Source: Thermoleophilia bacterium (GTDB lineage: Bacteria; Actinomycetota; Thermoleophilia; BMS3ABIN01). From it: a stretch of DNA of 64,000 nucleotides. Positions 21,009 to 51,809 of the stretch are shown one piece after another (positions within the stretch are counted from its first letter, which is position 1; the number at the start of each line of letters is the position of its first letter). Made by a program: the position numbers and the translations under genes. The stretch is from assembly GCA_041658605.1 (NCBI GenBank), contig JBAZZU010000009.1:6032-70031 (forward strand), in the 5' to 3' direction. The notes below the pieces were generated by a model that saw only the letters and a list, made by a program, of their open reading frames with translations, was not told the DNA's origin and searched no databases.

Positions 21009-21951
21009 TGAAAGCCGATTATGAAATGATTATCAATACCAACCATTCAAATATTTTTGTGCGGCTTGAAATACCCCCACCGAGGATTCATAAACAAAAA
21101 GAGGAAAAAAGAGCCACAAGGTGAAACAGGAATGATCATCCATTGCGTTCTATTTTGGCGCACCCAAGTAAGAACAAAGGCCTAAAATTCGAAAAACTCA
21201 AGTGTAAGTTAAGACTTTAGTGATAGCTCGCTGTATTCATACAAAGCTTCAAAAGGAAGTTGGCAATCCTTTTCGATTTGTTCGCGGCCACCCTCTTCTC
21301 GATCAACTAAAGCAAATGCCATTACGGGGTCTAAACCTTCGTCACGACACGTATTTATTGCTTTTATAATTGAACCACCACTGGTGACTACGTCATCAAC
21401 TATAGCTACACGCATACCCTTTTCAACAGGACCTTCTATCCAAAGATGAGTCCCATGTTTTTTCGGTTCTTTTCTTACAATAAAACCTGAAACTGGGTAG
21501 TTCATCAGGAAGCTGCAAGTAACAATGCCGGCTACTATTGGATCTGCTCCAATGGTTAGCCCACCGACATTATGGACATTTTTCTCTTGAAGCTTAAAAA
21601 CCAACAGCCTGGATAAAAGCGTTAGTCCTTCAGGATCTAGTGTTATCTTTTTGCAATCGAAGTAGTGATCGCTTTTTTTCCCGGATGAAAGCGTAAACTC
21701 ACCTTCTAGGTAGGCTTTTTCTCTGATGAGTTTACCTAAGCGTGATTTTATTGTTTCAAAATCGTTCAACTGGGGTTTTGCTGATTGGAAAGCATACTGT
21801 TTAATGGTGGCAGTATTTAATGCCAATTCAGCCTCCTCCTAGGGAATTTCTATCTTTTTAAGAGTATCTTAAAAAACTTGGCATGCCAAGGCTTCAGCTC
21901 ATATTGGTATTCTGTGCTAATAGTAGCAGCCCTTTAAAAAGCACACACACA
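21009..21951. other. AT-rich insertion (compositional island) between the hydrogenase delta and alpha genes
   Basis: Long A/T runs and AT-rich codons in the PRTase gene and both flanks, contrasting with GC-rich neighbours on each side. Confidence 0.6.
21209..21826 (-). CDS. Type I phosphoribosyltransferase (orotate-PRTase-like) encoded in an AT-rich insertion
   Basis: VAIVDDVVTSGGSI PRPP-binding motif. Gene and flanks (about 21010-21950) are visibly AT-rich against GC-rich surroundings. Confidence 0.6.
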   Translation of the reverse strand: MALNTATIKQYAFQSAKPQLNDFETIKSRLGKLIREKAYLEGEFTLSSGKKSDHYFDCKKITLDPEGLTLLSRLLVFKLQEKNVHNVGGLTIGADPIVAGIVTCSFLMNYPVSGFIVRKEPKKHGTHLWIEGPVEKGMRVAIVDDVVTSGGSIIKAINTCRDEGLDPVMAFALVDREEGGREQIEKDCQLPFEALYEYSELSLKS

Positions 21952-28238: not shown

Positions 28239-28583
28239 TTAGAACGATGCGGGATGGTCGCTGACGAACCTCAGCAGGTCCTGATTTCCTACCAGCACGA
28301 GGAAAAGATCGACGGTCAGAGGAGCGAACACCAGTGCCTGGCCGGGCAGCTCGAGCGTCATCCTGGGAAGATCCGTGCCCAGTTCACAGGCAAGGCTGGC
28401 GGCTGAAGACATGGCGGAGGCCGTATGGGCGGCGATGGCCTCCAGATTGCTGTTATCTCCGGTCGAAGCGACCAGCAGCCCGTCAGCCGAGACGAGCGCC
28501 GCCGCCGCGATTCCTTCGATGTCCATGTACGGCGTCAGCACGTTATCCAGAGCGCGCGACGCTGTTCTTCCGCTATCCGTCAT
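28239..28583 (-). CDS. Roadblock/LC7 domain protein (MglB-like)
   Basis: About 114 aa with the alpha-beta roadblock pattern (IEGIAAAALVSADGLLVAS). Immediately downstream of parB. Confidence 0.55.
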   Translation of the reverse strand: MTDSGRTASRALDNVLTPYMDIEGIAAAALVSADGLLVASTGDNSNLEAIAAHTASAMSSAASLACELGTDLPRMTLELPGQALVFAPLTVDLFLVLVGNQDLLRFVSDHPASF

Positions 28584-29482
28584 CGTTCCTTCTCCAGGAC
28601 TTCTATCAGCTTGTCAAGATCATCCGCGTTTGAGAATTCCATTTCGATTCTTCCTCCCTTCCCGGTCCATCTGACCTTGACCGGGAGACGGAAAGCTGAA
28701 TAAAGAGCGTCAGTCGTCTCGTCCATCAACTCCTGACCTACCGGGAAATTCTGGGGCTCTTTCAATTTGCTCCGGGGAGCATCCTCCTTTTTCGACAGCT
28801 CCTCGGCCTGCCTGACCGACAGTCCTCCCTTGACGATCCTGCGCGCAAGCTTTCGCTGTCGCGTCCTGTCGGAAACGGAAAGCAGGGCGCGACCATGTCC
28901 CTCGGTCAATTTAGCCTGCTCGATCAATTGCTGAACATCATCGGGAAGGTCGAGCAGCCTGATGGTGTTGGCTACGGCTGAGCGGCTGCGGCCCAGTTTA
29001 TTGGACAGCATTTCCTGGGTGATACCGTAATCTTCCTGAAGGTTGGCGTAAGCCCTGGCCGTGTCGATCGGGTTGAGGTCCTCACGGCTGATGTTTTCGA
29101 TAAGCGCGAGCTCGAGGGACTCCGCGTCCCCGGCTTCCCGGATCAGAGCGGGCACTGTCTCAAGACCGGCGATCCGCGCCGCGCGCCAGCGTCTTTCTCC
29201 GGCCACGAGCTCGTAACCGTCTCCCCGCTTGCGAACAACCACCGGCTGGACCAGGCCGACGGCGCGGATCGACTCCGCAAGCTCCTCGAGCGCGTCATCG
29301 TCGAAGATCGTACGGGGCTGATGCGGGTTGCCGGTAATTTGACTTAAAGATAATACGTGATACGGTGACTCATGCCCGGGCGAAACAGGTGCTTGACCTA
29401 CAGTATCATCCTTGTTTGTACTTATCAGCGCGGACAGGCCTCGGCCGAGGCCCTTGCTCGCCGGTTTCTTTTCGTTATTCAC
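28580..29482 (-). CDS. parB: Chromosome partitioning protein ParB/Spo0J
   Basis: GLGRGLSALI box, HTH region, ParB/Sulfiredoxin fold motifs. GTG start at 29482 preceded by GGAGGTGG. Overlaps parA stop. Confidence 0.8.
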   Translation of the reverse strand: MNNEKKPASKGLGRGLSALISTNKDDTVGQAPVSPGHESPYHVLSLSQITGNPHQPRTIFDDDALEELAESIRAVGLVQPVVVRKRGDGYELVAGERRWRAARIAGLETVPALIREAGDAESLELALIENISREDLNPIDTARAYANLQEDYGITQEMLSNKLGRSRSAVANTIRLLDLPDDVQQLIEQAKLTEGHGRALLSVSDRTRQRKLARRIVKGGLSVRQAEELSKKEDAPRSKLKEPQNFPVGQELMDETTDALYSAFRLPVKVRWTGKGGRIEMEFSNADDLDKLIEVLEKER

Positions 29483-30263
29483 GTTCGACCACCTCCGTAG
29501 CCAGATCAAAGTAGGCGTCAGAGCCCGCGCAGGTAGGGTCGTAACGCGAAATCGGTTTACCAAAACTCGGCGCTTCGCTCAACCTGATGTTGCGAGGTAT
29601 CACGGTCCTGTAGGTAAGCTCGGGGAAATGGGAGCGCACCTCATCGACGACCTGGGTGGAAAGTCTGGTGCGCGAGTCGAACATGGTCATCAGCAGGCCG
29701 GCTATCTGCAGCCCGGGGTTCAGTCCCTGGCGTACAAGCTCGACGGTCTGCAGCAGCTGGCCGAGTCCTTCCAGGGCGTAATATTCACATTGGACCGGTA
29801 TTATGAGCTTATCAGCAGCGACAAGCGCGTTAAGTGTTATGAGCCCCAGCGAAGGCGGGCAGTCAACAAAAATGTAGTCAAAATTGCCCCTGACTGTTGC
29901 CAGTGCGTCCGCGAGCACGAACTCCCGGCGCTCGCGTCCGGGCAATTCGACTTCGGCGCCGGCAAGGTCAGGAGTGGACGGGACGAGAACCAGCTGGTCG
30001 ACCTGGGTGGGCAGAATAGCCGAGTCAATTGACGCCCCATTGGTAAAGACATCGTAAATAGTGCTGTTACCAGCATAATCGTGTATTCCAAGACCATGGG
30101 TGGCATTGCATTGGGGGTCAGAATCAACAAGAAGGACCGCCGCGCCAGCCTCAGCCAGGCACACGGCAGTGTTTACACAGGTGGTAGTCTTGCCGACGCC
30201 GCCCTTCTGATTTGCGATGGCGTAGATCTTGCTTAATCCGGATCTTGCGTTTAAATCCTGCAT
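29475..30263 (-). CDS. parA: ParA/Soj chromosome partitioning ATPase
   Basis: Deviant Walker A KGGVGKTT, about 262 aa. Confidence 0.85.
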   Translation of the reverse strand: MQDLNARSGLSKIYAIANQKGGVGKTTTCVNTAVCLAEAGAAVLLVDSDPQCNATHGLGIHDYAGNSTIYDVFTNGASIDSAILPTQVDQLVLVPSTPDLAGAEVELPGRERREFVLADALATVRGNFDYIFVDCPPSLGLITLNALVAADKLIIPVQCEYYALEGLGQLLQTVELVRQGLNPGLQIAGLLMTMFDSRTRLSTQVVDEVRSHFPELTYRTVIPRNIRLSEAPSFGKPISRYDPTCAGSDAYFDLATEVVERE

Positions 30264-30295
30264 AAAGGCAGTCTATCAGAAGCACCGGACGGTGA

Positions 30296-31000
30296 CTAGA
30301 AATCGCCGAGCGGCCTTTTTCTGGCTACGCCTGGCCTGCGCGGAAAGCGTTCCGGCGTGGGTGAAGTTTTGGAAAAAACCCAGATATGGAGGTTCTTTGC
30401 GTCGGAATAGGGCTTTACAGACCCGATGCGGACCAGGGTTCCCCCAAGGAGCTCAGCCACCTGACAAGCCTGTTTTTCATCACCGGGGCTGCGGTCTCCA
30501 CGCTGCAGCAGCGCCGAACCGCCTGTTTTCAGTAACGGAAAACAATACTCCAGAACCTCCGCTATCGAACCGACGGCTCGCGCAAAGGCAATATCGAAAG
30601 TAGCTCTCATTTCTGATCGGCCCGCGTCTTCGGCCCGCGAGGCAAGGACAAAGGCGTTGTCGAGCCCAAGTTTCATTACTGTTTTCTCAATAAACTCGCA
30701 TTTCTTTCGCCTGGCCTCAATCATGGTGACGTTCAGGGATGGGACCGCGATTGCGAGCGGCAACCCCGGAAAGCCGGCGCCGCTGCCGATGTCGACCGCA
30801 GATTCAGCCGACTTCGTCTCTGGGAAATCGGCAAGGCCGAGACTGTCGCGAAAATGTATCGCTACTATATTTGCCGGCTCTGTGACCGCGGTGAGGTTTC
30901 TGTCAGACTGCTCTGTAAGCAAATCAAGCAGTTTCTCAAATGAGGCGATCTGCGAAGCGTCAAGGTGGAAATCGGATCCCAGGGAGGATTGCCAGGTCAT
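30296..31000 (-). CDS. rsmG: 16S rRNA (guanine527-N7)-methyltransferase RsmG (GidB)
   Basis: SAM-MTase motif [15 protein letters not shown] and conserved position after mnmG. Confidence 0.8.
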
Positions 31001-32889
31001 CGTCCCGCCGCCTTTATATAAAGGGAAAGCACGGAAATGTCAGATGGAGAAATACCCGCTATACGCGACGCCTGGCCCAGGGAGGCAGGCCGCATTCGCG
31101 CCAGCTTCTCCAGCGCCTCGTTAGCGATTCCTTTCAGATCGTTAAAAAGGAAATCCTCGGGAATCATCATTTCTTCCAGGTAACGCCTTCTATCAATATC
31201 TCGCAATTGGCGGACGATATATCCGGCGTATTTTGTTTCTATCTCTGCCCTCAGGACCGTATCCGCTGAAAAGCGGGAAATATCATGTGGAAGTAGTGGC
31301 AGCAGGTCATTGATGCCGATTTCAGGCCGTCGGAGTAGCTGAGAGACCGCCTGTGCTTCAGAAACCGGTGAACTATCCAGTCCCGCGAGCACGGAATTGG
31401 TCCTGTCATCTGGTTGAAGACGGGTTGAATCGAGCAGTTCCAGCAGCAGTTTGAGGTCGGTTTGTGATGCTCTTATCGATTCCATGTGGGCATCCGGGAC
31501 TAGACCCAGAGAATTACCGGCAGGGCTGAGGCGGGCGTGGGCATTGTCATGTCTGAGCAGCAGCCGGTATTCCGCTCTTGATGTGAACATGCGATAGGGC
31601 TCATCGACACCCTTTGTCACAAGGTCATCGATAAGAACACCAATATAGGCTTCATTCCTTCCGAGGACCAGGGGCTCGTCGTTTCTGGAACTCAGCGCGG
31701 CGTTGATTCCAGCCATTAGTCCCTGCGCGGCGGCTTCTTCGTAACCACTGGTTCCATTTATCTGCCCCGCGAGGAAAAGGCCGGAAATAGCTTTGGTTTC
31801 GAGTGAAAGCTTAAGCTGGCTTGGGATTACGTAATCGTATTCGACCGCATAACCGGGACGCATAATGCGGGCTGTTTCCAGGCCGGGGGTCGCCTTGATG
31901 ACCTTCTCCTGAACCCAGACGGGCAGACTGGTCGTAAGGCCCTGAAGGTAAAGCTCCTTTGTGCGGCGACCTTCAGGCTCGATGAAGATAGGGTGCCTGG
32001 GGCGATCCGGGAAGTTCATGACCTTGCGGTCAATCGATGGGCAATACCTCGGGCCCTTTCCGCTGATAGAGCCGGTTTTGATCGGTGACAAATGGAGGTA
32101 TTTTCTGATCACCTCGTGGGTATTCTCATTGGTGTATGTCAGGTAACAGGGGATCTGTCCGGTGGAATCGGCTTCTGAAAAGGGTGAAAAGGTCTGAATG
32201 TCCTCATCTCCGGGTTCCTGCTTGAGGCTTGATAGGTCTATCGACCGCGCGTCAATCCGGGGCGGAGTCGCGGACTGGAAACGCCCTAGTTCGATTCCAT
32301 TCGCTGAAAGGCTCGTAGAAAGTCCGATTGCCGGTGGTTCTCCCATACGGCCGGCGGGGAAACGCATTTCGCCTACGACTATCTTTCCATTAAGAAAGGT
32401 CCCGCAGGCAAGAACGACAGAGCGGCACTGGATACTGCTCCCATCTGTCAGCTCGATACCCCTCAATGTTTCACGTGAAACATTGAGGCCTGCCACCTGC
32501 CCTTCGAGGATCCTCAGGTTCGGTTCTGAGGCGAGTGCCCGCTTCATATTGTCTTCATAGACCTTTTTGTCTGCCTGGGCGCGAAGCGCCCTGACAGCGG
32601 GGCCTTTGCTCGTGTTGAGCATTTTCATCTGTATGAAAGAACGGTCGGTGTTGCGGCCCTGCTCACCGCCGAGCGCATCTATCTCGCGAGTGAGTTGTCC
32701 TTTCCCAACCCCGCCAATCGCGGGGTTGCACGGCATCAGGGCTATCTTTTCAAGGCTTAGAGTCAACAGGAGGGCAGAGCACCCCATTCGCGCGGCCGCC
32801 AGGGCCGCCTCGCAACCAGCATGCCCGCCGCCAACGATGATCACATCGATTGAGCCAAGGCTATTTTTAGATTCGTCACTCTGATTCAT
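30997..32889 (-). CDS. mnmG: tRNA uridine 5-carboxymethylaminomethyl modification enzyme MnmG (GidA)
   Basis: FAD-binding [11 protein letters not shown]-terminus, about 630 aa, full-length GidA architecture. Confidence 0.9.
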
Positions 32890-32913
32890 TGCTGCTGTTC
32901 CTGATTTATTTTT

Positions 32914-33990
32914 TTAGCAACCTGGATCATCTGTCCTGACAGTTACAGGTCGCGATTTCTGATCGGTGATCCGCTGGCAGAGTTTCTTAACAAATTTAGT
33001 ATCAGTTATCAAAACACCGGGGTCATGCCCGCTCTGTCGCGCGGCTGCTCCCCTGCCGGCCAGCAGGCCAAGAGTCGCCGCCTCGAGATAGTTACAGCTG
33101 CCTGCAGCGCGCCCAGCAATAAAAAGGCCCGGATTTGCCCGCGACTCCAGGTTCGCGTCTACCTGGTCAGCGGCAAGCACATGGTGGTAGACGGAATAGG
33201 AGGGCCGTGTGATCCAGGCGTCCGAAAGCCCCGCATGTTCTCGCAGCAGTCGCAGCTGGTTTTCGCGGTTGCCTCGCGACTCCAAACCATAGCCAAGTAT
33301 CTCACCAAGCTGCCGGCCATCCAGGAGGAGGCGAAGGCCGTTACTTGACCAGTAATCATTATTTTGGTCTATAGTGCGGCAGTCCAGATCGGGCATTGTG
33401 CCCGCCCATACCTCGATCATCTGTAATCCCGCTATTTGCAGGCAATTTGTCAGCGCGTTGGCGGGTATTTCACCGATTCGCCCACCGGGAACGACCGCTC
33501 CTCCATCGTCGACTCTGGCCTTAAGGAATGTGCCAGCCGTGATGACGACGGCCGCGGCGGAAAAACGTTCCCCCAGTTTTGTGCCGACCATCCAGCCATC
33601 CGCGGAAGGCTCCAGCGAAGTTACCAGCGCCTGCCTTGATTCCAGGCCAGCCTCATTTTCCAGCATCTCCTTGTAGGCCAGCCCGAGCAGGCGCCTGTCG
33701 ACAGATAGCCTCCCTTCCGGCTCGCTGTCTATGACAACCCCGTCCAGGGCGAGCGCATCCGGGAGCCTGCCGCCCAGTGCGGACATTTCCTTAAACAGCG
33801 AAACGCGAGGATCGCCCGGTCCATCGATCAGAGAGGGAGTCGCCGGCGGATAGCCGGCCATGTCGAGATTAATGGTGAGGCAAAGGGTGTGCGCTCCAGC
33901 CCCGGCGGCGGCCATGGATGCTTCACAACCAGCCGGCCCGGCGCCAATAACAATCACATCGTATGCAGGAATGTCGATCGCGTCATTCAC
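32914..33990 (-). CDS. Short MnmG/GidA-family FAD-binding paralog (N-terminal domain only)
   Basis: VIVIGAGPAGCEAS FAD-binding motif and a GidA-like N-terminal domain, but only about 358 aa and lacking the C-terminal tRNA/MnmE-interaction domain. Confidence 0.5.
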   Translation of the reverse strand: MNDAIDIPAYDVIVIGAGPAGCEASMAAAGAGAHTLCLTINLDMAGYPPATPSLIDGPGDPRVSLFKEMSALGGRLPDALALDGVVIDSEPEGRLSVDRRLLGLAYKEMLENEAGLESRQALVTSLEPSADGWMVGTKLGERFSAAAVVITAGTFLKARVDDGGAVVPGGRIGEIPANALTNCLQIAGLQMIEVWAGTMPDLDCRTIDQNNDYWSSNGLRLLLDGRQLGEILGYGLESRGNRENQLRLLREHAGLSDAWITRPSYSVYHHVLAADQVDANLESRANPGLFIAGRAAGSCNYLEAATLGLLAGRGAAARQSGHDPGVLITDTKFVKKLCQRITDQKSRPVTVRTDDPGC

Positions 33991-34007
33991 AAAAAAACCG
34001 CGGGCTC

Positions 34008-35390
34008 TTATTTGCCGATGCAGAATTCATGGAAGATCACGTCCAGGAGCTCCTCGACGAATTCCTCGCCCGTGATTTCGCCCAGTGACGCCAGAGCGTC
34101 GCGCAACTCCTCGGCGATGATCTCTTCTCCCAGCCCCACTCTGAGGCCCTGTCTTGCGAGAGCCAGCGATTCGGCTGCGCCCTCAAGAAGACCTCGATGG
34201 CGCTCGTGCGTGATTATCGGGCCCTCCAGTGGCGGCAACGTACCGCCGAGAACCTTCGAGGCGATTCTTTCCTTGAGGTCCTTCAGCCCCTGCCGGGTCA
34301 TGGCCGAGATGACAACAGGGCGTGAGGGAAGAAGTCCCTGGTTGAAGCTCGGGGTGCGCCCCCTGAACCTGTCGGCCTTGTTGATGACGTATATCGCTTT
34401 TTCGGCGGGGACGGAGGTTATCAGCGCCCGGTCGTGATCGTCTTCCCGCTCGCTGCCGTCAAATAAACAGAGAACAAGGTCCGCCTCGTTCACGGCGCGG
34501 CGGCTGCGTTCCATCCCTATCTGTTCGACCTCATCGTTCGAGGGTCTCAGGCCGGCCGTGTCGATTAGCTGCAGGGGGATGCCCTCAACGTTGATGATCT
34601 CTTCGATCGTGTCCCGCGTAGTGCCAGGCACTTCGGTGACTATGGCTCTTTCGCGCATCAACAGGGAGTTCAGCAGGCTCGATTTACCCACATTCGGCTT
34701 GCCGACGATCGCTGTTCGTACGCCCTCGCTGAGAACTCTTCCCACGAACGCCGAATCTATCAGCTCCCGGAGTCTGGTCTCGACCTGCTCAAGCCGCCCG
34801 TCGAGTTCAGCCCTGTCCAGTTCTTCCACATCCTCATCCGAAAAGTCGATCTGCGCCTCCGTGGACGCGAGCAGGACCAGCAGAGCGCGGCGGATCTCCC
34901 CGATCTCCTCTGAAAGAGTTCCCTCAAGCTGGGCGAGCGCGACCTTGAGCCCCGCCTCGGTCTTGGCGGATATTATCTGCGCGACGCTCTCCGCCTGGGC
35001 CAGGTCGATGCGTCCGTTCAGAAACGCGCGGCGGGTGAAATCCCCGGGGCGAGCCAGTTCGGCGCCATGTCTTAAAAAGAGCGAGAGTATATTACGCTGG
35101 GCGATCGGCCCGCCGTGGCAGTTGATCTCGACGATGTTCTCGCGCGTATATGTGCCGGGAGCCCGCATCACGCCTGCCAGCACTTCATCGATACGGACGC
35201 CGTTTTCAGGGTCGCCGATTATGCCGTAGTGGAGCGTGTGGGAGTCCGATTCGGATAACTTCCTGCCGCTGCGTGAACGGAAAACCCGGTCACAGATGGC
35301 AATCGATTCGGAACCGGTCATGCGCACGATGCCGATGGCGCCCGCACCGAGCGGCGTTGAAATGGCGGCTATTGTCGGAAAGTCATGCAC
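34008..35390 (-). CDS. mnmE: tRNA modification GTPase MnmE (TrmE)
   Basis: G-domain motifs GKPNVGKSS, DTAG. C-terminal CIGK motif. Confidence 0.9.
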   Translation of the reverse strand: MHDFPTIAAISTPLGAGAIGIVRMTGSESIAICDRVFRSRSGRKLSESDSHTLHYGIIGDPENGVRIDEVLAGVMRAPGTYTRENIVEINCHGGPIAQRNILSLFLRHGAELARPGDFTRRAFLNGRIDLAQAESVAQIISAKTEAGLKVALAQLEGTLSEEIGEIRRALLVLLASTEAQIDFSDEDVEELDRAELDGRLEQVETRLRELIDSAFVGRVLSEGVRTAIVGKPNVGKSSLLNSLLMRERAIVTEVPGTTRDTIEEIINVEGIPLQLIDTAGLRPSNDEVEQIGMERSRRAVNEADLVLCLFDGSEREDDHDRALITSVPAEKAIYVINKADRFRGRTPSFNQGLLPSRPVVISAMTRQGLKDLKERIASKVLGGTLPPLEGPIITHERHRGLLEGAAESLALARQGLRVGLGEEIIAEELRDALASLGEITGEEFVEELLDVIFHEFCIGK

Positions 35391-35690: not shown

Positions 35691-37493
35691 TTGGCGGAAA
35701 ACAGTAAAGAACAAAAAGGATCCTTTCATTTCTCTCCCCGACCCAACCGGGCGGCCCAGATCGACTGGCAGGAATGGGGCGAGGAAGCTTTCAGGCGCTC
35801 ACTCAATGAGGGAAAGCCGGTGCTTCTTTCCATCTCCGCGGTCTGGTGCCACTGGTGCCACGTCATGGATGAGACCAGCTTCTCGGACGACGAGGTCATC
35901 CGGCTCATCAATGAACATTACATCCCGGTCAGAGTCGACAACGACCGCAGGCCGGACATAAACCAGCGCTACAACCAGGGTGGCTGGCCCACGGTCGCGA
36001 TGCTCACCGCCGAAGGCGAGGTCATCACCGGCGTGACGTACCTGGAACCCGAGACGATGAGGAAGATGCTCAATGACATCTCTGGCCTCTATAGCAACAA
36101 CAAGGCGGAGATAGACGAGGCCATAAAAAAGATCCAGGCCCAGCGGGCCGAGTTTGAGAGTCCGGTGCCAGGCGAAATGAGCCAGGCGATCATGGCCCAT
36201 GTCCTTGAAGTGGCGGGTGACGTCTACGACAAGGAGATGGGCGGATTTGGCGCGCTGGCGAAATTCCCGTACGTCAATGTATTGAACCTGATCCTGACTG
36301 TGCTGTCGGAAGGGACTATCGGCGAGCTGGAAGTGATGCTCACCACAACACTCGACGCCATGGCCGCGGGCGGCATGTACGATCAGCTCGAAGGCGGGTT
36401 CTTCCGCTACTCGACCAACCGCGACTGGTCGGTCCCGCATTACGAGAAGATGCTCGAGGACAACGCCGGTTTGCTGGCGGTCTATGCCGAGGCTTCCCGC
36501 ATCCTTGAATCCGCTGAATATGAACGGGTGGCCCGCGATGTCTACAGGTTCATGGATACGGTGATGCTGAACGGCGAAACCGGAGTCTTCGGCGGCAGCC
36601 AGGACGCGGACGAAGTTTATTACAGCCTTGATGAACCGGCCCGTGAAAAGCACGGAGCGCCCCATGTGGATCCGACGATATATGCCGGATGGAATGCCGC
36701 GGCGGCGTCTTCTGTTTTGAGGTGCTTCCAGATTTTTGGTGATCAAGGATTTCGCGCCCGGGCGGTCGGTGTGCTCGATTATATCTGGGACAACATGTGG
36801 GACGCGAAGCTCGGCGTCTACCGTTTTCATGACGGCGGGCCACAGGTGCCGGGCCTTCTGGCCGACACGGCCCTTCTGGCGACCGCCTGTCTGGATGCAT
36901 ATGAATCCGGGGCCGGTGAAATCTGGCTGAGCAGATCTACGGCAGCGGCCGCCTGGATGCTGGCAAATCTGGAGGATGGATCAGCTGGCGGTTTTTATGA
37001 TTGCGGGGCCGTGCCCGGCGACAGCGGCCTGTTCCCGGTGAGGGTGAAACCGCCGGTGGAAAACAGTCAGGCGGCGTCTGTGCTGATCCGTCTTCGACAG
37101 AACACGGGCCAGGTTCGTTTCGGCGATGCGGCCGAGCGGGCCTTATCGTTCTTTTCCGGCAGCTACAAGGAGCTGGGGCTGTTTTCCGCGGAATACGCGA
37201 TTGCCGTGCAGCGTCTGCTCGAACCGGCTGTGCGCGTAACGATCGCCGGTCCTCCGGGCGATAGCGGTACAGACGAGATGATCAGGGCCGCCCACAGGGC
37301 ACGCGTACCGTTTCGTTCCATCGAGGTCCTTGATCCGGAGATACACGGGGAGGAGCTTGACGCGACGGGATACGGGTACGCCGGAAAGCCCATCGCATAC
37401 ATCTGCATCGGCGCCAGCTGTCAGCCCCCGGTAACCGAACCGGAAGAACTACCCGGCAGGCTGGAAGCGGGCTGGGCGAGCGCAAACCGCTGA
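35691..37493 (+). CDS. Thioredoxin-domain protein (YyaL/DUF255 family, with six-hairpin glycosidase-like C-terminal domain)
   Basis: N-terminal thioredoxin-like domain with WCHWCH, about 600 aa overall, as in YyaL/SSP411 proteins. Confidence 0.65.
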   Translation: MAENSKEQKGSFHFSPRPNRAAQIDWQEWGEEAFRRSLNEGKPVLLSISAVWCHWCHVMDETSFSDDEVIRLINEHYIPVRVDNDRRPDINQRYNQGGWPTVAMLTAEGEVITGVTYLEPETMRKMLNDISGLYSNNKAEIDEAIKKIQAQRAEFESPVPGEMSQAIMAHVLEVAGDVYDKEMGGFGALAKFPYVNVLNLILTVLSEGTIGELEVMLTTTLDAMAAGGMYDQLEGGFFRYSTNRDWSVPHYEKMLEDNAGLLAVYAEASRILESAEYERVARDVYRFMDTVMLNGETGVFGGSQDADEVYYSLDEPAREKHGAPHVDPTIYAGWNAAAASSVLRCFQIFGDQGFRARAVGVLDYIWDNMWDAKLGVYRFHDGGPQVPGLLADTALLATACLDAYESGAGEIWLSRSTAAAAWMLANLEDGSAGGFYDCGAVPGDSGLFPVRVKPPVENSQAASVLIRLRQNTGQVRFGDAAERALSFFSGSYKELGLFSAEYAIAVQRLLEPAVRVTIAGPPGDSGTDEMIRAAHRARVPFRSIEVLDPEIHGEELDATGYGYAGKPIAYICIGASCQPPVTEPEELPGRLEAGWASANR

Positions 37494-47456: not shown

Positions 47457-48026
47457 TTAAGCCGCCGGAAATGTCTGGAGCCTGGGATAGATATAGTACT
47501 CGTCTACCATCGACGACATGGTCATCGGGCCGAACATGGACCAGTCGATATCCTTTGCCGTTGTACGGTTTACTGTTACCTTTGCAGCAATCTCGTCGCT
47601 CTTAATCCCCTGGTCGACCCCGTACATAGTGACCGTTACCCTGGATATCTCAGGATATTCGAACAGGTAAGCCATTACATTACCGGAAGATGAGGCCATT
47701 GTTCCCTCAACGGAACCGTCGCCGCACGTTGCAGGCCGGTCGACTCCGATCTCAACAATCTTATCCATTCCTTCGCCTGAGAGGGTTGCATGTCGCACCT
47801 GCATTGTCCTGCCAAAGCCGCCGGAAACAGCTTCCTGGAGATATACCTGCGTTAGCAAAGGAGGCTCAGAGGCATCTTTTTGAGTGGAGTCATTACGAAA
47901 AGCACCAGTGCCGTAACCGCAACCGGTTATCAGGGCGCATAGCAGAACGGCCGCAAGAGTTCCAAAAATAAGGACTGTTGCGCCGCGGGATATTCGCCTG
48001 TTTTTTCTGGGTGTTACGAAGGTCAT
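47457..48026 (-). CDS. Hypothetical lipoprotein
   Basis: Signal peptide with lipobox LITGCG, about 189 aa. Confidence 0.35.
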   Translation of the reverse strand: MTFVTPRKNRRISRGATVLIFGTLAAVLLCALITGCGYGTGAFRNDSTQKDASEPPLLTQVYLQEAVSGGFGRTMQVRHATLSGEGMDKIVEIGVDRPATCGDGSVEGTMASSSGNVMAYLFEYPEISRVTVTMYGVDQGIKSDEIAAKVTVNRTTAKDIDWSMFGPMTMSSMVDEYYIYPRLQTFPAA

Positions 48027-48755
48027 TTTTCACACACCTATATAGTTATCGTTAGTACACGTTGCTTTTAGATTACTGCAAATTTCATGCCAAAGTAGGG
48101 TTTTCTTTACAGACGTGATTGTGGCCGCGAAATTTCAGTGTTAAAACGCCAGGATCTCAAAACCAATGCAAATTTCTGTGTTAAATCATACACTCGGTTG
48201 TGGCATTTGGCGTAGATTCGTATGTGGATTGCAGATCCCACCTACCTTTCTTCTTTCATTATGGATGTTAAGCGCATTCGCCTCGCCCTGCTTCTGTGCT
48301 ATTAAAAGGAGCATTCAGGTCAGGTTTTTAGTTTCTTCGGGGTTATCTTCTTGAATAATTCAAAAGTTGGCACGATTTCTGCTCTTTAGGAACGTGAAAG
48401 CGTTTATTTGTTCCTTCACTCTTCGGTCTGGGTCAAATGTTCGCTTTTTCATCATCCTCCGGCTCCGGCTAACCACCGGAGCCTTACAGACAGCCGGTTA
48501 ACGCACCCCCCAGTTTCAGCGCCGGAGAATATAGACCCAGCTGAAGACTTTCTGAAATTGAGACAAAGACTGGGAATGGTGTTGCGATCGGATTGCTGCT
48601 TCCTCGAATCCAAATAATTCGCATCAAGCCTTTCCCCAAAGTCAGAGATGTCTGAAGCTACCTGGATATGCTTTTTGGGAGGTGGTAATTGAAAAATTGA
48701 ATGACCGGATAGGAGCTTTTACCTATTGCGAGTTCTAGAAAACGAAGGAGTGAAA

Positions 48756-49667
48756 ATGAAGGTAAAACAGGATAAGAAAGAGCTGGAAGAGATCACTTCA
48801 GGCTCCAAACCAGGTAGCGTTATATCGAGGCGTAAGTTCATGAGTCGGGGCGCTCTGGTTGTGGGAGCCGCCGGAGCCACCGTTGCCGCAACCGGAGGTC
48901 TGGGCTTGCTGGGTAGTTCATTTGCGAGCGCACAAACCTGCGCGACGCTTCCCGGCACCGTCAAGCATCCTCGCGGCACCTGGGGCTATCCCACCGCTGG
49001 CCTGGACGCCAACGCGGTTGCCGAGCGGGCTTATCAGGGTTTTTGGGTAAATGCCTGCTGCTGGGCTGTCGTGGATGGTGTCATCGGCACCCTCCAGGAA
49101 ACATTGGGTTCTCCTTATACGAATCTTGATCTGATGGCCTTCAAGTTCGGGGCCGGCGGTATCAATGGCTGGGGTACAACGTGTGGCACGTGCTTAGGCG
49201 GCGTTCTTTGCGCCAACATCATAGCCGGCGTAACCGGTACAGCCGACAAGGGCTCCCAGATGGGTAATGATCTTATGGGTTATTACGCTCAGTCATCATT
49301 CCCTTTGTATACACCTGTCGTATCGAAATACGCGGCGGTAGGCGGCACCAAGCCCGAATATCTGCCTGGTGGGATAATTCCCACATCAATCTCAGATTCA
49401 CCGCTATGCCATGTATCAACAAGCAAATGGATGGCAGCGGCCACGATAGCAAACGGCGGAGTCCCGATTCTGTCCGGTAGCAATGAGAGAAAAGAAAGAT
49501 GTGCCAGGGTCGCGGGAACAATGGCCAGAAAGACTGTAGAGCTGCTCAACGCCTGGAAAGCCGGCACCTATGTAGCCGGTGGCTTCCACGCTAACGGAAG
49601 CGCCTCAGTTACGTCCGATCCCGGACGGCCCTCACAGTACAATTGTGGCGATTGCCATACTGCATAG
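48756..49667 (+). CDS. Tat-signal, cysteine-rich putative redox protein (C_GCAxxG_C_C-like core) with C-terminal CxxCH
   Basis: ATG 48756 preceded by GAAGGAG. SRRKFMSRGALVVGAAGA twin-arginine signal. NACCWAVV and GWGTTCGTCLGGVLCANII resemble the C-GCAxxG-C-C family. The terminal CGDCH is a heme-c-type CxxCH. Confidence 0.45.
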   Translation: MKVKQDKKELEEITSGSKPGSVISRRKFMSRGALVVGAAGATVAATGGLGLLGSSFASAQTCATLPGTVKHPRGTWGYPTAGLDANAVAERAYQGFWVNACCWAVVDGVIGTLQETLGSPYTNLDLMAFKFGAGGINGWGTTCGTCLGGVLCANIIAGVTGTADKGSQMGNDLMGYYAQSSFPLYTPVVSKYAAVGGTKPEYLPGGIIPTSISDSPLCHVSTSKWMAAATIANGGVPILSGSNERKERCARVAGTMARKTVELLNAWKAGTYVAGGFHANGSASVTSDPGRPSQYNCGDCHTA

Positions 49668-49720
49668 GCAGTGAACAGGTTACCCAGAATGACTTCACAA
49701 ACAATCAAGAGGAGAAGGAA

Positions 49721-50188
49721 ATGAAGTTAAAAAGGAAACTGGGCCTTGTCGCTGCGGTAGCTGCTTTGATGACCCTGGCTTTGTCGTTGGGAGCTAGCGG
49801 TATTGTCAGCGCAAGCACACCCCCGGATCCGGTATCGTGTTATTGTACGCAGCCCCTGTTAAGCCTGACCAAAGCAAGTGTGTACTGGGGCAGCTATAGT
49901 GATTACACGAGCAGGGCTCTTTCAGTTAATTATGACATAAGCAATAACTCAGCTAACTATGCAAATGCTCACAGCCTTGAGATTGTCGGCGCCACCAGTA
50001 CGAACGGTGTGACTTTGCTCGACAATGGACGCAATGTAAATATGGTCCCTGCCGGCGAATGTGAGCTTGTGACGGTGAAATACACCGTGCCACCCGGAGT
50101 CGGTTCCTATAACACGACTGTTTACGCGACAACCAGTGATCAGTGTGGTAATTCATACAGTTACCCGGGACCGATGCCAACACCATAG
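49721..50188 (+). CDS. Secreted hypothetical protein (Sec signal peptide)
   Basis: ATG 49721 preceded by GAGGAGAAGGAA. Cleavable signal (AAVAALMTLALSLGASG). Ser/Thr/Asn/Tyr-rich mature region. Confidence 0.4.
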   Translation: MKLKRKLGLVAAVAALMTLALSLGASGIVSASTPPDPVSCYCTQPLLSLTKASVYWGSYSDYTSRALSVNYDISNNSANYANAHSLEIVGATSTNGVTLLDNGRNVNMVPAGECELVTVKYTVPPGVGSYNTTVYATTSDQCGNSYSYPGPMPTP

Positions 50189-50240
50189 AGTAGTCATACG
50201 TGATCAAATGGCTATTTTGCGTATGTGAAAGGAGCACGAT

Positions 50241-50378
50241 ATGTCAGACATGCGATGCGGCAGTCGGGAGCTATATGTGAAACCAGCGGTTGCGAAACAA
50301 GACAACCTGAAGAAAATCACATTCGAGTGTCCACAATGGCAGTGCAGCGTCACGGTTCCACCACCACCTGCGCCATAG
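50241..50378 (+). CDS. Small Cys-containing peptide (45 aa), below the ORF-track cutoff
   Basis: Strong SD (GAAAGGAG) 7 nt upstream of the ATG. Cys at positions 6, 30 and 35, Pro-rich tail. Followed by a perfect hairpin at 50409-50433. Confidence 0.3.
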   Translation: MSDMRCGSRELYVKPAVAKQDNLKKITFECPQWQCSVTVPPPPAP

Positions 50379-50408
50379 AAAACATATAAGTCAGTAAGTG
50401 ATTCGAGA

Positions 50409-50433
50409 CATGGGGCCCCATGCGGGCCCCATG
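50409..50433 (+). terminator. Perfect 10-bp GC-rich hairpin (CATGGGGCCC-catgc-GGGCCCCATG) with weak downstream T-tract
   Basis: Read directly from the sequence, downstream of the 45-aa ORF and upstream of tatA copy 1. Confidence 0.35.
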
Positions 50434-50480
50434 TTCATGCAGTCTTCTTATCAATGTAACTGGATAAAGGAGCAAACAAA

Positions 50481-50636
50481 ATGCCATCAATCGGCTGGCA
50501 GGAGCTAATTATCGTATTAATTATCCTTCTTGTTATTATCGGGCCCAAAAGGTTATCGGAATTGGGCCGCTCAACAGGCAAGGGAATACTGGAGTTCAAG
50601 AAGTCGAGTAAAGACAACGGGGAAATGTCAGCGTAG
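50481..50636 (+). CDS. tatA: TatA/TatE-family protein, copy 1 (51 aa, lower GC), below the ORF-track cutoff
   Basis: SD AAAGGAG. N-terminal TM helix then the GPKRLSELGRSTGKGILEFKK amphipathic hinge typical of TatA. Confidence 0.6.
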   Translation: MPSIGWQELIIVLIILLVIIGPKRLSELGRSTGKGILEFKKSSKDNGEMSA

Positions 50637-50730
50637 AGACTTTTTGACTTGACCTCTTACGTATCCTACAATGTCAAATGAATACAGATTTCGGCAATAA
50701 CTGCTTATCAATTCAAGGGAGCTGAAAATA

Positions 50731-50997
50731 ATGCCTTTTAATATGCCAGGTATGGGTGAGTGGATAATCATCCTGGTGATCCTTCTGGTCATCTTCGGAC
50801 CCAAGCGTCTGCCGGAACTCGGGCGTTCGCTGGGCAAGGGTATCAAGGAGTTCAAAAAATCGACCAACGAACTCACGGAGCAGCTGACCGCTGAAGAACC
50901 GAAGAAGACTACGGCAGAAACAGCAGAGAAGGAAGAGGCTGCCAAGAAGCCGGCAGAAAACGCTGAGTCAAAGACTTCTGAAACCAAAACGACTTAA
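50731..50997 (+). CDS. tatA: TatA, copy 2 (88 aa)
   Basis: [35 protein letters not shown] followed by acidic/Lys-rich tail. Confidence 0.75.
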
Positions 50998-51029
50998 ACT
51001 TACCGTAAGCCACGGTAAAATCCCCTCCG

Positions 51030-51809
51030 GTGTCTGAGTTAACCAAAGAATACCATATGCCGTTGCTTGAGCATCTGGAAGAGCTGCGCAAACGGATAAT
51101 CAGGTCAATCATAGCGCTTGTTCTGGGTGTCGCCTTAGCTTTCGGGTTCAAGGACTACCTGTTGTATATCCTGGTAGTACCGCTCAATGGCAGAGAGCTC
51201 ATTACCCTTTCTCCCACTGAATCTTTTATGACGACGCTGAAGGTCGCTGGTTATGCCGGGATGATCCTTGCGTCCCCGGTGATCATTTACCAGATATGGG
51301 CTTTCATGGCGCCCGGGCTCAAGTCGAAAGAGAAGCGGGTAATATATTTCGCATCCTTCTTTACCACGATACTTTTCCTGATCGGAATCGTCTTTGCATG
51401 GTATGTGGTGCTGCCGCGCGGGCTTGATTTTCTCCTCAATTATCAGGCAGATTACTTTAACCAGCAGCTGCAGGCCGATCAGTACTTCTCCTTTGTTACC
51501 ATGTTCCTGCTTGGCTTTGGAATAATCTTCGAGACACCGGTCATGATATTGACATTGGCCAGGCTGGGAATCGTGAATACCCGCATGCTCAGGAAAAACC
51601 GCAAGTACGCAATTCTCATCGGCGCCATATTGAGCGCCGCGCTGACTCCCGGGCAGGACATTTTCTCCATGCTGATGATGGCGATACCGTTCCTGCTACT
51701 GTTCGAAATAAGCGTGCTGGCCAGCAGGTTCGTCCAGAGGACGAAGGCGAGCAAGGACGATGAGGAGATCGAGTTGGCCGACGACAGTGCCGGAGACACG
51801 GCGGGTTAG
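51030..51809 (+). CDS. tatC: Sec-independent translocase TatC
   Basis: LLEHLEELRKR N-terminus and six TM helices, about 259 aa. Confidence 0.8.
   Translation: MSELTKEYHMPLLEHLEELRKRIIRSIIALVLGVALAFGFKDYLLYILVVPLNGRELITLSPTESFMTTLKVAGYAGMILASPVIIYQIWAFMAPGLKSKEKRVIYFASFFTTILFLIGIVFAWYVVLPRGLDFLLNYQADYFNQQLQADQYFSFVTMFLLGFGIIFETPVMILTLARLGIVNTRMLRKNRKYAILIGAILSAALTPGQDIFSMLMMAIPFLLLFEISVLASRFVQRTKASKDDEEIELADDSAGDTAG

Follow-up and report, generated by a model that had tools for sequence, protein, structure and literature searches.

Components of the Tat (twin-arginine translocation) machinery that are linked to a substrate are known from the phoD-tatAd-tatCd operon of Bacillus subtilis and from TatE of Escherichia coli, and subunits without a signal of their own can leave the cell as Tat hitchhikers, as the hydrogenase large subunit does when carried by the small subunit. 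Split-Soret-type cytochromes, for which a structure has been solved (split-Soret cytochrome c of Desulfovibrio desulfuricans ATCC 27774, PDB 1H21), are of obscure role and have already been listed as predicted Tat substrates (PMC3623810 Table 1; PMC4429474), and a survey reported the Actinobacteria to be without a sigma-54 system (PMC3162934). Here we describe a locus of a Thermoleophilia bacterium (assembly GCA_041658605.1, contig JBAZZU010000009.1) in which a gene for a split-Soret cytochrome c-like (Ssc-like) protein lies behind a sigma-54-type promoter and 5' of tat genes. The stretch of DNA analysed, referred to as the window, is 64,000 nt long, and all window coordinates are positions in that stretch. 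With a probability of about 0.6, we read the locus as a conserved operon of uncultured Thermoleophilia, apparently sigma-54-driven, that encodes a Tat-exported one-haem relative of the split-Soret cytochrome together with its partners and an extra TatA, acts as an inducible extracytoplasmic module, and has had its coding block swapped between lineages. Other loci used for comparison carry L-numbers, among them L008 from a sister genome and L001/L007 from Gaiellales. The main features are as follows, with GC3 denoting the GC content of third codon positions.

47457-48026, minus strand: up189 gene, divergent, encoding a putative lipoprotein.
48077-48092, minus strand: sigma-54-type promoter TGGCATGAAATTTGCA facing up189, assigned by pattern match.
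48130-48145 and 48170-48185, no strand assigned: direct repeat AAATTTCWGTGTTAAA in two copies with a spacing of 40 nt, flanked by the divergent promoters.
48368-48383, plus strand: sigma-54-type promoter TGGCACGATTTCTGCT, 388 nt 5' of the Ssc-like ATG.
48385-48495, plus strand: two-hairpin leader of about 105 nt with the core CGGTCTGGGTCAAA, starting at the predicted 5' end of the transcript.
48756-49667, plus strand: Ssc-like gene, 303 aa from the ATG.
48825-48839, plus strand: twin-arginine motif S-R-R-K-F, residues 24-28, assigned by conservation in homologues.
48950-50700, no strand assigned: divergent allele block, read as exchanged, from sliding identity to L008, protein matrices, the copy in L209 and GC3.
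49644-49658, plus strand: CGDCH haem-c attachment motif, residues 297-301, assigned by homologue conservation and alignment to a CxxCH of 1H21.
49721-50188, plus strand: p155 gene, 155 aa.
50241-50378, plus strand: pep45 gene, 45 aa.
50407-50435, plus strand: GC-rich hairpin of 12 bp, -24.3 kcal/mol, ending the three-gene unit.
50481-50636, plus strand: tatA1, 51 aa, a short-tailed TatA paralogue of the A1 type.

By homology, the Ssc-like protein is a predicted one-haem relative of split-Soret cytochrome c. Comparison with 1H21 gave E=1.4e-19 in a pairwise phmmer search and E=2.2e-59 with a profile of the 57-sequence family. A preliminary description of this DNA, made from the letters alone, had likened the Cys-rich product to C_GCAxxG_C_C proteins, and the Pfam search agreed (PF09719, 34.6 bits vs a cut-off of 27, E=2.2e-8). 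The narrower C_GCAxxG_C_C model TIGR01909 gave 14.6 bits, under its cut-off of 47.4, and the split-Soret equivalog of NCBIfam (NF047622) gave 121.3 bits, under its cut-off of 400, with profile positions 1-242 of 275 covered. When the AlphaFold2 (AF2) model (predicted local distance difference test, pLDDT, 81) was searched against the PDB with Foldseek, 1H21 was the sole match with E <= 0.001 (E=1.2e-11, TM 0.69). The C-terminus of the model is of low confidence, which is expected because the protein was modelled without its cofactor.

All four products that had been listed for this segment, and their motifs, were found in the window sequence. The Ssc-like protein has ten Cys and contains the NACCWAVV and GTTCGTCLGGVLC blocks as well as the terminal CGDCH. 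Its start was placed at ATG 48756 because M1 is invariant in homologues; the mechanical open reading frame (ORF) begins at TTG 48726. Across 57 diverse homologues from Thermoleophilia, Desulfobulbales, Nitrospirota and other groups, C101, C143, C218, H219, C249, C297, C300 and H301 are invariant, and C101, C143, C218 and C249, the predicted ligands of the non-haem iron centre, match Cys residues of 1H21 in the alignments. The single CxxCH stands near the C-terminus of a protein that stops at residue 303, and this one-CxxCH state is common to the 57 homologues. Which CxxCH of 1H21 pairs with it depends on the alignment, the pairwise one pointing to the first and the profile one to the second.

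The N-terminus has the layout of a Tat signal, SRRKFMSRGALVVGAAG...SFASAQ, with the S/T-R-R-x-F-L-K consensus, a hydrophobic stretch and an A-x-A site. The 19 closest homologues all keep S24, R25, R26 and F28 as well as an extra Cys, C62, and R25 is nearly invariant among the 57. The conserved signal predicts a Tat substrate, and a CxxCH on a protein with an export signal predicts a c-type cytochrome. Loss of conservation in homologues had been named as grounds for giving up the proposed twin-arginine signal and haem-c-type CxxCH; it was not seen, both motifs being invariant. C62, just past the predicted signal-peptide cleavage site, is invariant solely in the p155- and pep45-bearing clade and may form an inter-subunit link. 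Elsewhere in the window (35691-37493, plus strand) a DUF255/thioredoxin-like protein has a CHWCH that fits the CxxCH pattern; its Pfam match suggests a thioredoxin-type motif, not haem.

Relatives of the Ssc-like protein are encoded in 259 stretches of a one-genome-per-species collection, and the one-haem form is a new variant of a known, functionally obscure family. The neighbours of four distant homologues (L016, L034, L064 and L080) included no shared partner genes. At L034 (9806-13848, a Nitrospirota metagenome-assembled genome, MAG), genes for a histidine kinase and a sigma-54 activator come immediately after a distant one-haem Ssc-like gene, which has no sigma-54 motif upstream.

Two fixed partners follow the Ssc-like gene. 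The first, p155, has the Sec-type signal that had been described, together with four invariant Cys (C40, C42, C114 and C142). It has 33 homologues, all without a Pfam domain; where a source is named, it is a Thermoleophilia/Actinobacteria MAG. Its AF2 model (pLDDT 86) combines an N-terminal helix with an Ig-like beta-sandwich, and Foldseek against the PDB returned generic beta-sandwich matches only, none with E <= 0.001. As modelled, p155 is probably a secreted Ig-like beta-sandwich protein with two disulfides. The second partner, pep45, is the 45-aa peptide with 3 Cys and a PPPPAP tail noted before; it has no signal sequence, its core reads Y.KP.L..HDNLKE.TFECP.WQCSV.VPPPP, and it lies 3' of p155 in every actinobacterial locus covering that region. 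A strong hairpin always follows pep45; it occurs at the same place in L001, L002, L004, L209 and L210, with T-runs after it in L209 and L002 and no clear U-tract in the window. The perfect hairpin given earlier is thus present, with 12 bp in place of 10 bp.

On the other side of the intergenic region, up189 has a lipobox (LITG|C) and is a putative lipoprotein. Thirteen actinobacterial loci, the relocated L001/L007 and L014 among them, have it next to the three genes 3' of the gap (Ssc-like gene, p155 and pep45; hereafter the cassette), and an exhaustive search found just 21 up189 clusters among 1.84 billion representatives. Neither Pfam nor NCBIfam gave a match to p155, pep45 or up189, and all three occur only with the actinobacterial clade of the Ssc-like cytochrome. 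The up189 gene is part of the same unit as the cassette; its GC3 (0.547) is low like that of the cassette.

Alignment of the gap exposed TTGGCACG-N4-TTGCT, a canonical sigma-54 promoter, 388 nt 5' of the Ssc-like ATG. The motif fits the consensus TGGCAC-N5-TTGCW, with conserved GG (-24) and GC (-12), and a pattern search counted 3 matches in the window vs 0.27 expected; this number was reached in 0/100 shuffles, and all three matches lie in the region of the locus. The motif facing up189 is found at the same position in L002, L004, L008, L010, L011 and L207, and the operon-facing motif 287-476 nt 5' of the gene in L001/L007, L002, L004, L008, L009, L010, L012, L013 and L207, so that 9-10 of 11 actinobacterial loci have the promoter motif at a matching relative position. 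Upstream of non-actinobacterial Ssc-like genes it was found in none of 69 cases (background 0.0074 per 700 nt), and sigma-54 control therefore appears specific to the actinobacterial clade. The third match (50471-50486, minus strand) overlaps the start of tatA1 from the other strand; it lacks conservation in L210 and was judged to be probably due to chance. The two direct repeats AAATTTCWGTGTTAAA may be candidate activator binding sites; their conservation in L008 and L011 is no more than partial, and the inter-promoter region is poorly conserved across lineages.

Genes for sigma-54 machinery were found in relatives. The 712-kb contig JACRMB010000003.1 of GCA_016235065.1 carries the full syntenic locus (L207) and, in addition, a sigma-54 cluster (L206, 5073-11758). 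In this cluster rpoN, whose product has Sigma54_AID/CBD/DBD domains and an RpoN box, lies directly 5' of genes for a PAS histidine kinase, an NtrC-type activator, a MacB/FtsX ABC transporter and a small BamE-like lipoprotein, and the cluster is then followed by the same promoter and leader as in the window locus. A further sigma-54 motif is present on L206 at 15940, 5' of a DUF4418 gene. L014, a contig that bears the cassette, encodes an AtoC/NtrC-type activator with GAFTGA, and many Thermoleophilia MAGs encode sigma-54-dependent regulators 65-73% identical to that of L014.

The leader is a candidate new RNA motif common to the sigma-54-type promoters of two unrelated operons. Independent minimum free energy folds gave the same two hairpins in every lineage, and the leader contains a nearly invariant CGGUCUGGGU element. 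RNAalifold on a MAFFT alignment gave the second hairpin only, with the distant sequences out of register, and a hand-set structure and covariance model were used instead. This model (R1) scored 85.9 bits at the window leader, with one strong plus-strand hit per locus and none elsewhere in the window, and also recovered L206 and L207, both outside its training set. Of the alignment cells, 80.9% pair, vs <=58% with slid partners, and 14 cells changed on both sides. A search of Rfam 15 on 47.0-51.2 kb at E<=1 returned a chance snoR35 hit only (E=0.4, 20.8 bits vs a gathering score of 40). A metagenome scan with the leader pattern matched at least 119 stretches; among the matches listed, 115 were due to chance and the real ones were L116 (the same contig as L011), L144, L176 and L203. 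Copies of the leader lie at L206 12006-12110, L014 4970-5088, L144 9378-9481, L176 8342-8444 and L203 96-202 (minus strand), and in these five it follows a sigma-54 promoter 3' of the rpoN-kinase-activator-ABC cluster.

The leader could stabilise the 5' end, bind a protein, work as a riboswitch or be a small RNA (sRNA) in its own right. An alternative to a cis-acting mRNA leader is that the block after the promoter is a sigma-54-dependent sRNA of its own, ended by a third hairpin, or a site bound by protein at the DNA level. Its core CGGTCTGGGT is kept in sequence and not merely in pairing, more than 250 poorly conserved nt separate the block from the start codon, and in L002 and L010 a terminator-like hairpin with a T-run stands about 20 nt past the second hairpin. 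However, the window, L008 and L011 have no clear terminator there, no other promoter is evident for the operon, and the distance from the element to the next gene 3' of it does not exceed about 240 nt in L144, L176 and L203. We regard a separate sRNA or DNA site as unlikely, though worth keeping in mind, and retain the reading of the block as the leader of the operon transcript.

Gene order around the cassette is conserved in at least eight Thermoleophilia lineages (L002-L006, L008-L011, L013 and L207), in which the flanking proteins are 60-95% identical to those of the window. It runs UDG, TRAM methyltransferase, up189 (minus strand), a gap of 700-1000 nt, the Ssc-like gene, p155, pep45, an optional TatA1, TatA2, TatC, GT2, polysaccharide deacetylase and MctB. 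Every syntenic relative has these genes at the site, with no empty tatAC-proximal site among those examined, and no integrase, transposase, tRNA or border repeats were found at the locus. The window also holds, at 28580-35390, parB, parA, rsmG, mnmG and mnmE, along with another GIDA-like ORF of lesser length (32914-33990), a block of genes that are usually origin-proximal; with parAB, rsmG, mnmG and mnmE nearby, the locus therefore lies in the core chromosome.

The drop in composition noted in the preliminary description is real and has two parts. Against a window GC of 0.573, the 729 nt upstream of the Ssc-like gene (48027-48755) have a GC of 0.433, whereas the genes that follow stand out by their GC3 (0.53-0.58): 0.569 in the Ssc-like gene, 0.526 in p155, 0.543 in pep45 and 0.577 in tatA1, z = -1.5 to -2.2 against the mean of 0.692 (sd 0.076) in 42 other window ORFs. 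The short tatA is thus compositionally shifted as described, but the second tatA, said to be GC-typical, is not (GC 0.506, GC3 0.596). Nor is the upstream segment free of ORFs of 60 codons or more over about 725 nt: mechanical ORFs of 62 codons (48166-48354) and 69 codons (48408-48617) are present, and we take them to be non-coding because conservation is at the nucleotide level, without third-position wobble. Elsewhere in the window, an ORF at 21209-21826 (minus strand) has a GC3 of 0.33 vs the window mean of 0.69 and is either a false frame or foreign DNA.

We read the coding block as having been replaced by recombination with an allele of another, lower-GC lineage at an ancient locus, and such a replacement would account for the compositional anomaly of the coding part. 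Nucleotide identity between the window and L008 is 80-88% in the flanks, 82-85% over promoter and leader and 84% over the signal-peptide codons. It drops to 58-68% from about 48.95 kb and to less than 50% over pep45-tatA1 (tatA1 being absent in L008), and is back abruptly at 82-86% from about 50.70 kb. The p155 allele of the window is 58-66% identical to all others, whereas six other lineages, whose flanking proteins are mostly 60-85% identical, share 74-89% among themselves. Mosaicism is also evident between the sisters L002 and L010, with flanks 81-98% identical and Ssc-like proteins only 65% identical, each being nearer to another lineage's (74-80%). Furthermore, the window-type allele occurs at 83% nucleotide identity in another context at L209 (1-1400, ENA k141_496124), where a canonical terminator closes it and the next gene, instead of tatA-tatC, encodes a GT4 glycosyltransferase in convergent orientation. 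It is also found, with a 51-aa TatA1, in L210, which is probably the same genome as L011. GC3 of the window-type allele is low in both of its hosts, and the L008 allele matches its own flanks.

Fast evolution in place, for example by diversifying selection on exported proteins, together with codon usage relaxed by rare expression, would need no horizontal exchange. The products are indeed exported, cassette GC3 is also lower in L004, L009 and L013, and identity declines gradually in places. However, p155 is otherwise slow-evolving, yet the window allele is distant from all others; the Ssc-like proteins of L002 and L010 are discordant with their close flanks; the window allele sits in a different context in L209 at 83% nucleotide identity; and the return of identity at about 50.70 kb is abrupt. 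Fast local divergence is thus the weaker alternative to allele replacement, and as a full account we hold it to be rather improbable.

The preliminary description had proposed a mobile or accessory redox/export cassette that was inserted, with its own TatA, before the host tatA-tatC. Several observations agree with this: cassette GC3 is below that of the flanks, the block diverges from the sister L008, the cassette occurs in other genomic contexts in L001/L007, L012, L014 and L209, and in Gaiellales an A1-type TatA follows it with no tatC nearby. Yet because an identical set of genes stands at this position in at least eight lineages whose flanks have diverged widely, every relative so far having the site occupied, a lineage-specific insertion is rejected; a finding that had been named as one to overturn the proposal was, for the most part, what we observed. 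In addition, integrase and transposase genes, a tRNA and flanking repeats are all absent from the locus, identity to L008 stays flank-like over the regulatory region and the gene's 5' end, and L008 has the cassette without tatA1. The suggestion that the block is foreign to its surroundings holds for the coding part, 48.95-50.70 kb only, which is discordant with the flanks in composition and phylogeny. It does not hold for the deepest GC dip, which is a conserved AT-rich regulatory region and not imported, because it is 82-85% identical to L008, like the flanks. We consider insertion of a mobile cassette very doubtful and keep to allele replacement at an ancient locus.

The tat genes next to the cassette comprise the A1-type tatA1 and a housekeeping pair, listed here with the promoter that faces it.

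50644-50672, plus strand: sigma-70-like promoter TTGACT-17-TACAAT, facing tatA2-tatC, with 10/12 consensus matches, assigned by consensus match only.
50731-51809, plus strand: tatA2 and tatC, the housekeeping Tat genes.
50731-50997, plus strand: tatA2, 88 aa.
51030-51809, plus strand: tatC, assigned by Pfam.

TatA of the A1 type starts with MPSIGWQE and has a short tail; the A2 type has a long acidic tail ending in ETKT[ST] and is always 5' of tatC. The 88-aa tatA2 product of the window ends in ETKTT and scores 76.4 bits with TatA_B_E (PF02416) and 75.5 bits with TIGR01411. For tatA1, PF02416 gave 56.8 bits vs a cut-off of 21 (E=1.3e-15) and TIGR01411 53.0 bits, slightly under its cut-off of 53.9. 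An A1-type TatA follows the cassette in the window, L002, L009, L010, L207 and L210, and it does so too at L001/L007 of Gaiellales, where tatC is absent from the neighbourhood. The tatA1 of the window groups with the cassette-adjacent TatAs of L002, L009, L010 and L007, and the copy in L210 is 82% identical to it. A separate A1 TatA is absent in L008, L004 and L013. The earlier notion of a Tat substrate travelling with its own TatA therefore stands as far as an A1 paralogue type follows the cassette in several lineages. It fails as a general rule at the sister L008, which keeps the Tat-signal protein without TatA1, so that the substrate does not need TatA1. TatA1 is an accessory paralogue linked to the cassette, not an export requirement. 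The window tatA2 and tatC are 91% and 83-84% identical, respectively, to those of L008 and are conserved along with the flanks.

From these features a working order of events can be proposed. A signal would act through a kinase and activator on sigma-54 transcription from near 48394. The 729-nt region would hold two back-to-back sigma-54-type promoters, one for up189 and the other for the three-gene operon via a 370-nt leader. The iron centre of the Ssc-like protein, held by the four conserved Cys, would probably be assembled in the cytoplasm, the folded protein exported by the adjacent TatA/TatC, and haem joined outside the membrane to the flexible C-terminal CxxCH. p155 would be exported via Sec, and pep45 may either leave bound to the Tat substrate as a hitchhiker or stay in the cytoplasm. 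The hairpin would close the unit, and the short TatA behind it probably adds translocase capacity while the operon is on and is dispensable.

A peptide- or cofactor-maturation system, in which pep45 would be a precursor like those of ribosomally synthesized and post-translationally modified peptides (RiPPs) or like PqqA, the Cys-rich protein or p155 would modify or carry it and the CxxCH would bind a metal and not haem, is most improbable. In its favour, pep45 shows strong conservation of its core CP.WQC and of its poly-Pro tail, the Ssc-like residue C62 is invariant in the pep45-bearing clade alone, and the Y-x-x-P-x-L motif and E-[IV]-T-x spacing of pep45 are reminiscent of leaders bound by RiPP recognition elements (RREs). 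However, no conserved locus has a radical-SAM, RRE, cyclase or protease gene, the CxxCH aligns to a haem site of a solved cytochrome, and pep45, unlike the two larger and exported proteins, is without an export signal.

Several points weigh against the reading of the locus as a sigma-54-driven export module for a haem protein. Neither rpoN nor a gene for a sigma-54 activator or for cytochrome c maturation is present in the 64-kb window, and a six-frame motif scan of the whole window together with Pfam scans of 29 window ORFs found no ccm/ccs genes. Sigma-54 control and haem attachment therefore rely, for this genome, on its relatives. The position of the transcription start is a prediction, as is joint transcription of tatA1, and a complex of the Ssc-like protein, p155 and pep45 is putative only. 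Covariation in the leader is modest, with 7/24 pairs changed on both sides in a count made on the model-fitted alignment, and some of the mosaic signal could be produced by rapid divergence in place. Lastly, split-Soret mutants of Desulfovibrio alaskensis G20 were without phenotype, and the physiological role of the family is obscure (PMC4215793).

The main weight of the finding lies in the sigma-54 regulon in Actinomycetota and in the shared leader RNA. Sigma-54 promoters, rpoN and activators are documented here in a phylum said to lack them, and a candidate RNA leader motif is common to two operons. For the split-Soret-type cytochromes, whose one-haem form is widespread, the fixed partners and the inducible sigma-54-type promoter in Thermoleophilia offer a route to function via the signal sensed by the linked kinase and activator. 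We tentatively suggest, as a possibility still well short of probable, a compact Thermoleophilia sigma-54 regulon (rpoN, PAS kinase, NtrC-type activator and MacB-type ABC transporter) with an undescribed two-hairpin leader of about 105 nt, containing a nearly invariant CGGUCUGGGU, on its target transcripts; one target would be a new three-component extracytoplasmic redox complex of the one-haem Ssc-like cytochrome with its iron centre, the Ig-like p155 and pep45, the last hitchhiking on the Tat substrate. The locus also holds a caution for genome scanning: a GC dip with discordant identity may mark allele replacement at an ancient locus and not insertion.

Comparison with described systems places these features in context. 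Like the known Tat hitchhikers, pep45 is a signal-less product encoded with a Tat-signal redox protein; it is far smaller than they are, and the likeness is by analogy only. As in the phoD-tatAd-tatCd operon and with TatE, a TatA-family paralogue lies directly beside a Tat substrate, is probably co-expressed with it and comes in addition to a housekeeping TatA. In contrast to those systems, the TatA paralogue alone is linked here, with no dedicated TatC, and its absence from L008 makes it accessory; its co-transcription is putative.

The regulatory region resembles the NtrC/AtoC/ZraR two-component sigma-54 regulons in its -24 GG and -12 GC at canonical spacing and in its long upstream region, and genes for RpoN, a PAS histidine kinase and a GAFTGA-containing REC-AAA+-HTH_8 activator are present in a relative. 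It differs from them in that it is found in Actinomycetota, reported to be without sigma-54 (PMC3162934), in that the activator is not beside the operon, and in that the transcripts would share a structured leader absent from Rfam.

The closest described relative of the exported protein is split-Soret cytochrome c of D. desulfuricans ATCC 27774 (1H21; NF047622; PF09719). The two share homology across the whole mature domain, the four aligned Cys of the family signature and a CxxCH close to the C-terminus, and the predicted Tat-type signal is one that has also been predicted for split-Soret cytochromes in Shewanella and archaea (PMC3623810; PMC4429474). However, the Desulfovibrio protein is di-haem, with two CxxCH, whereas the Ssc-like protein has one and ends three residues after it, and it has the clade-specific invariant N-terminal Cys C62. 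Finally, it is encoded here with two lineage-specific partners, behind a sigma-54-type promoter that is lacking in 69 non-actinobacterial homologues.

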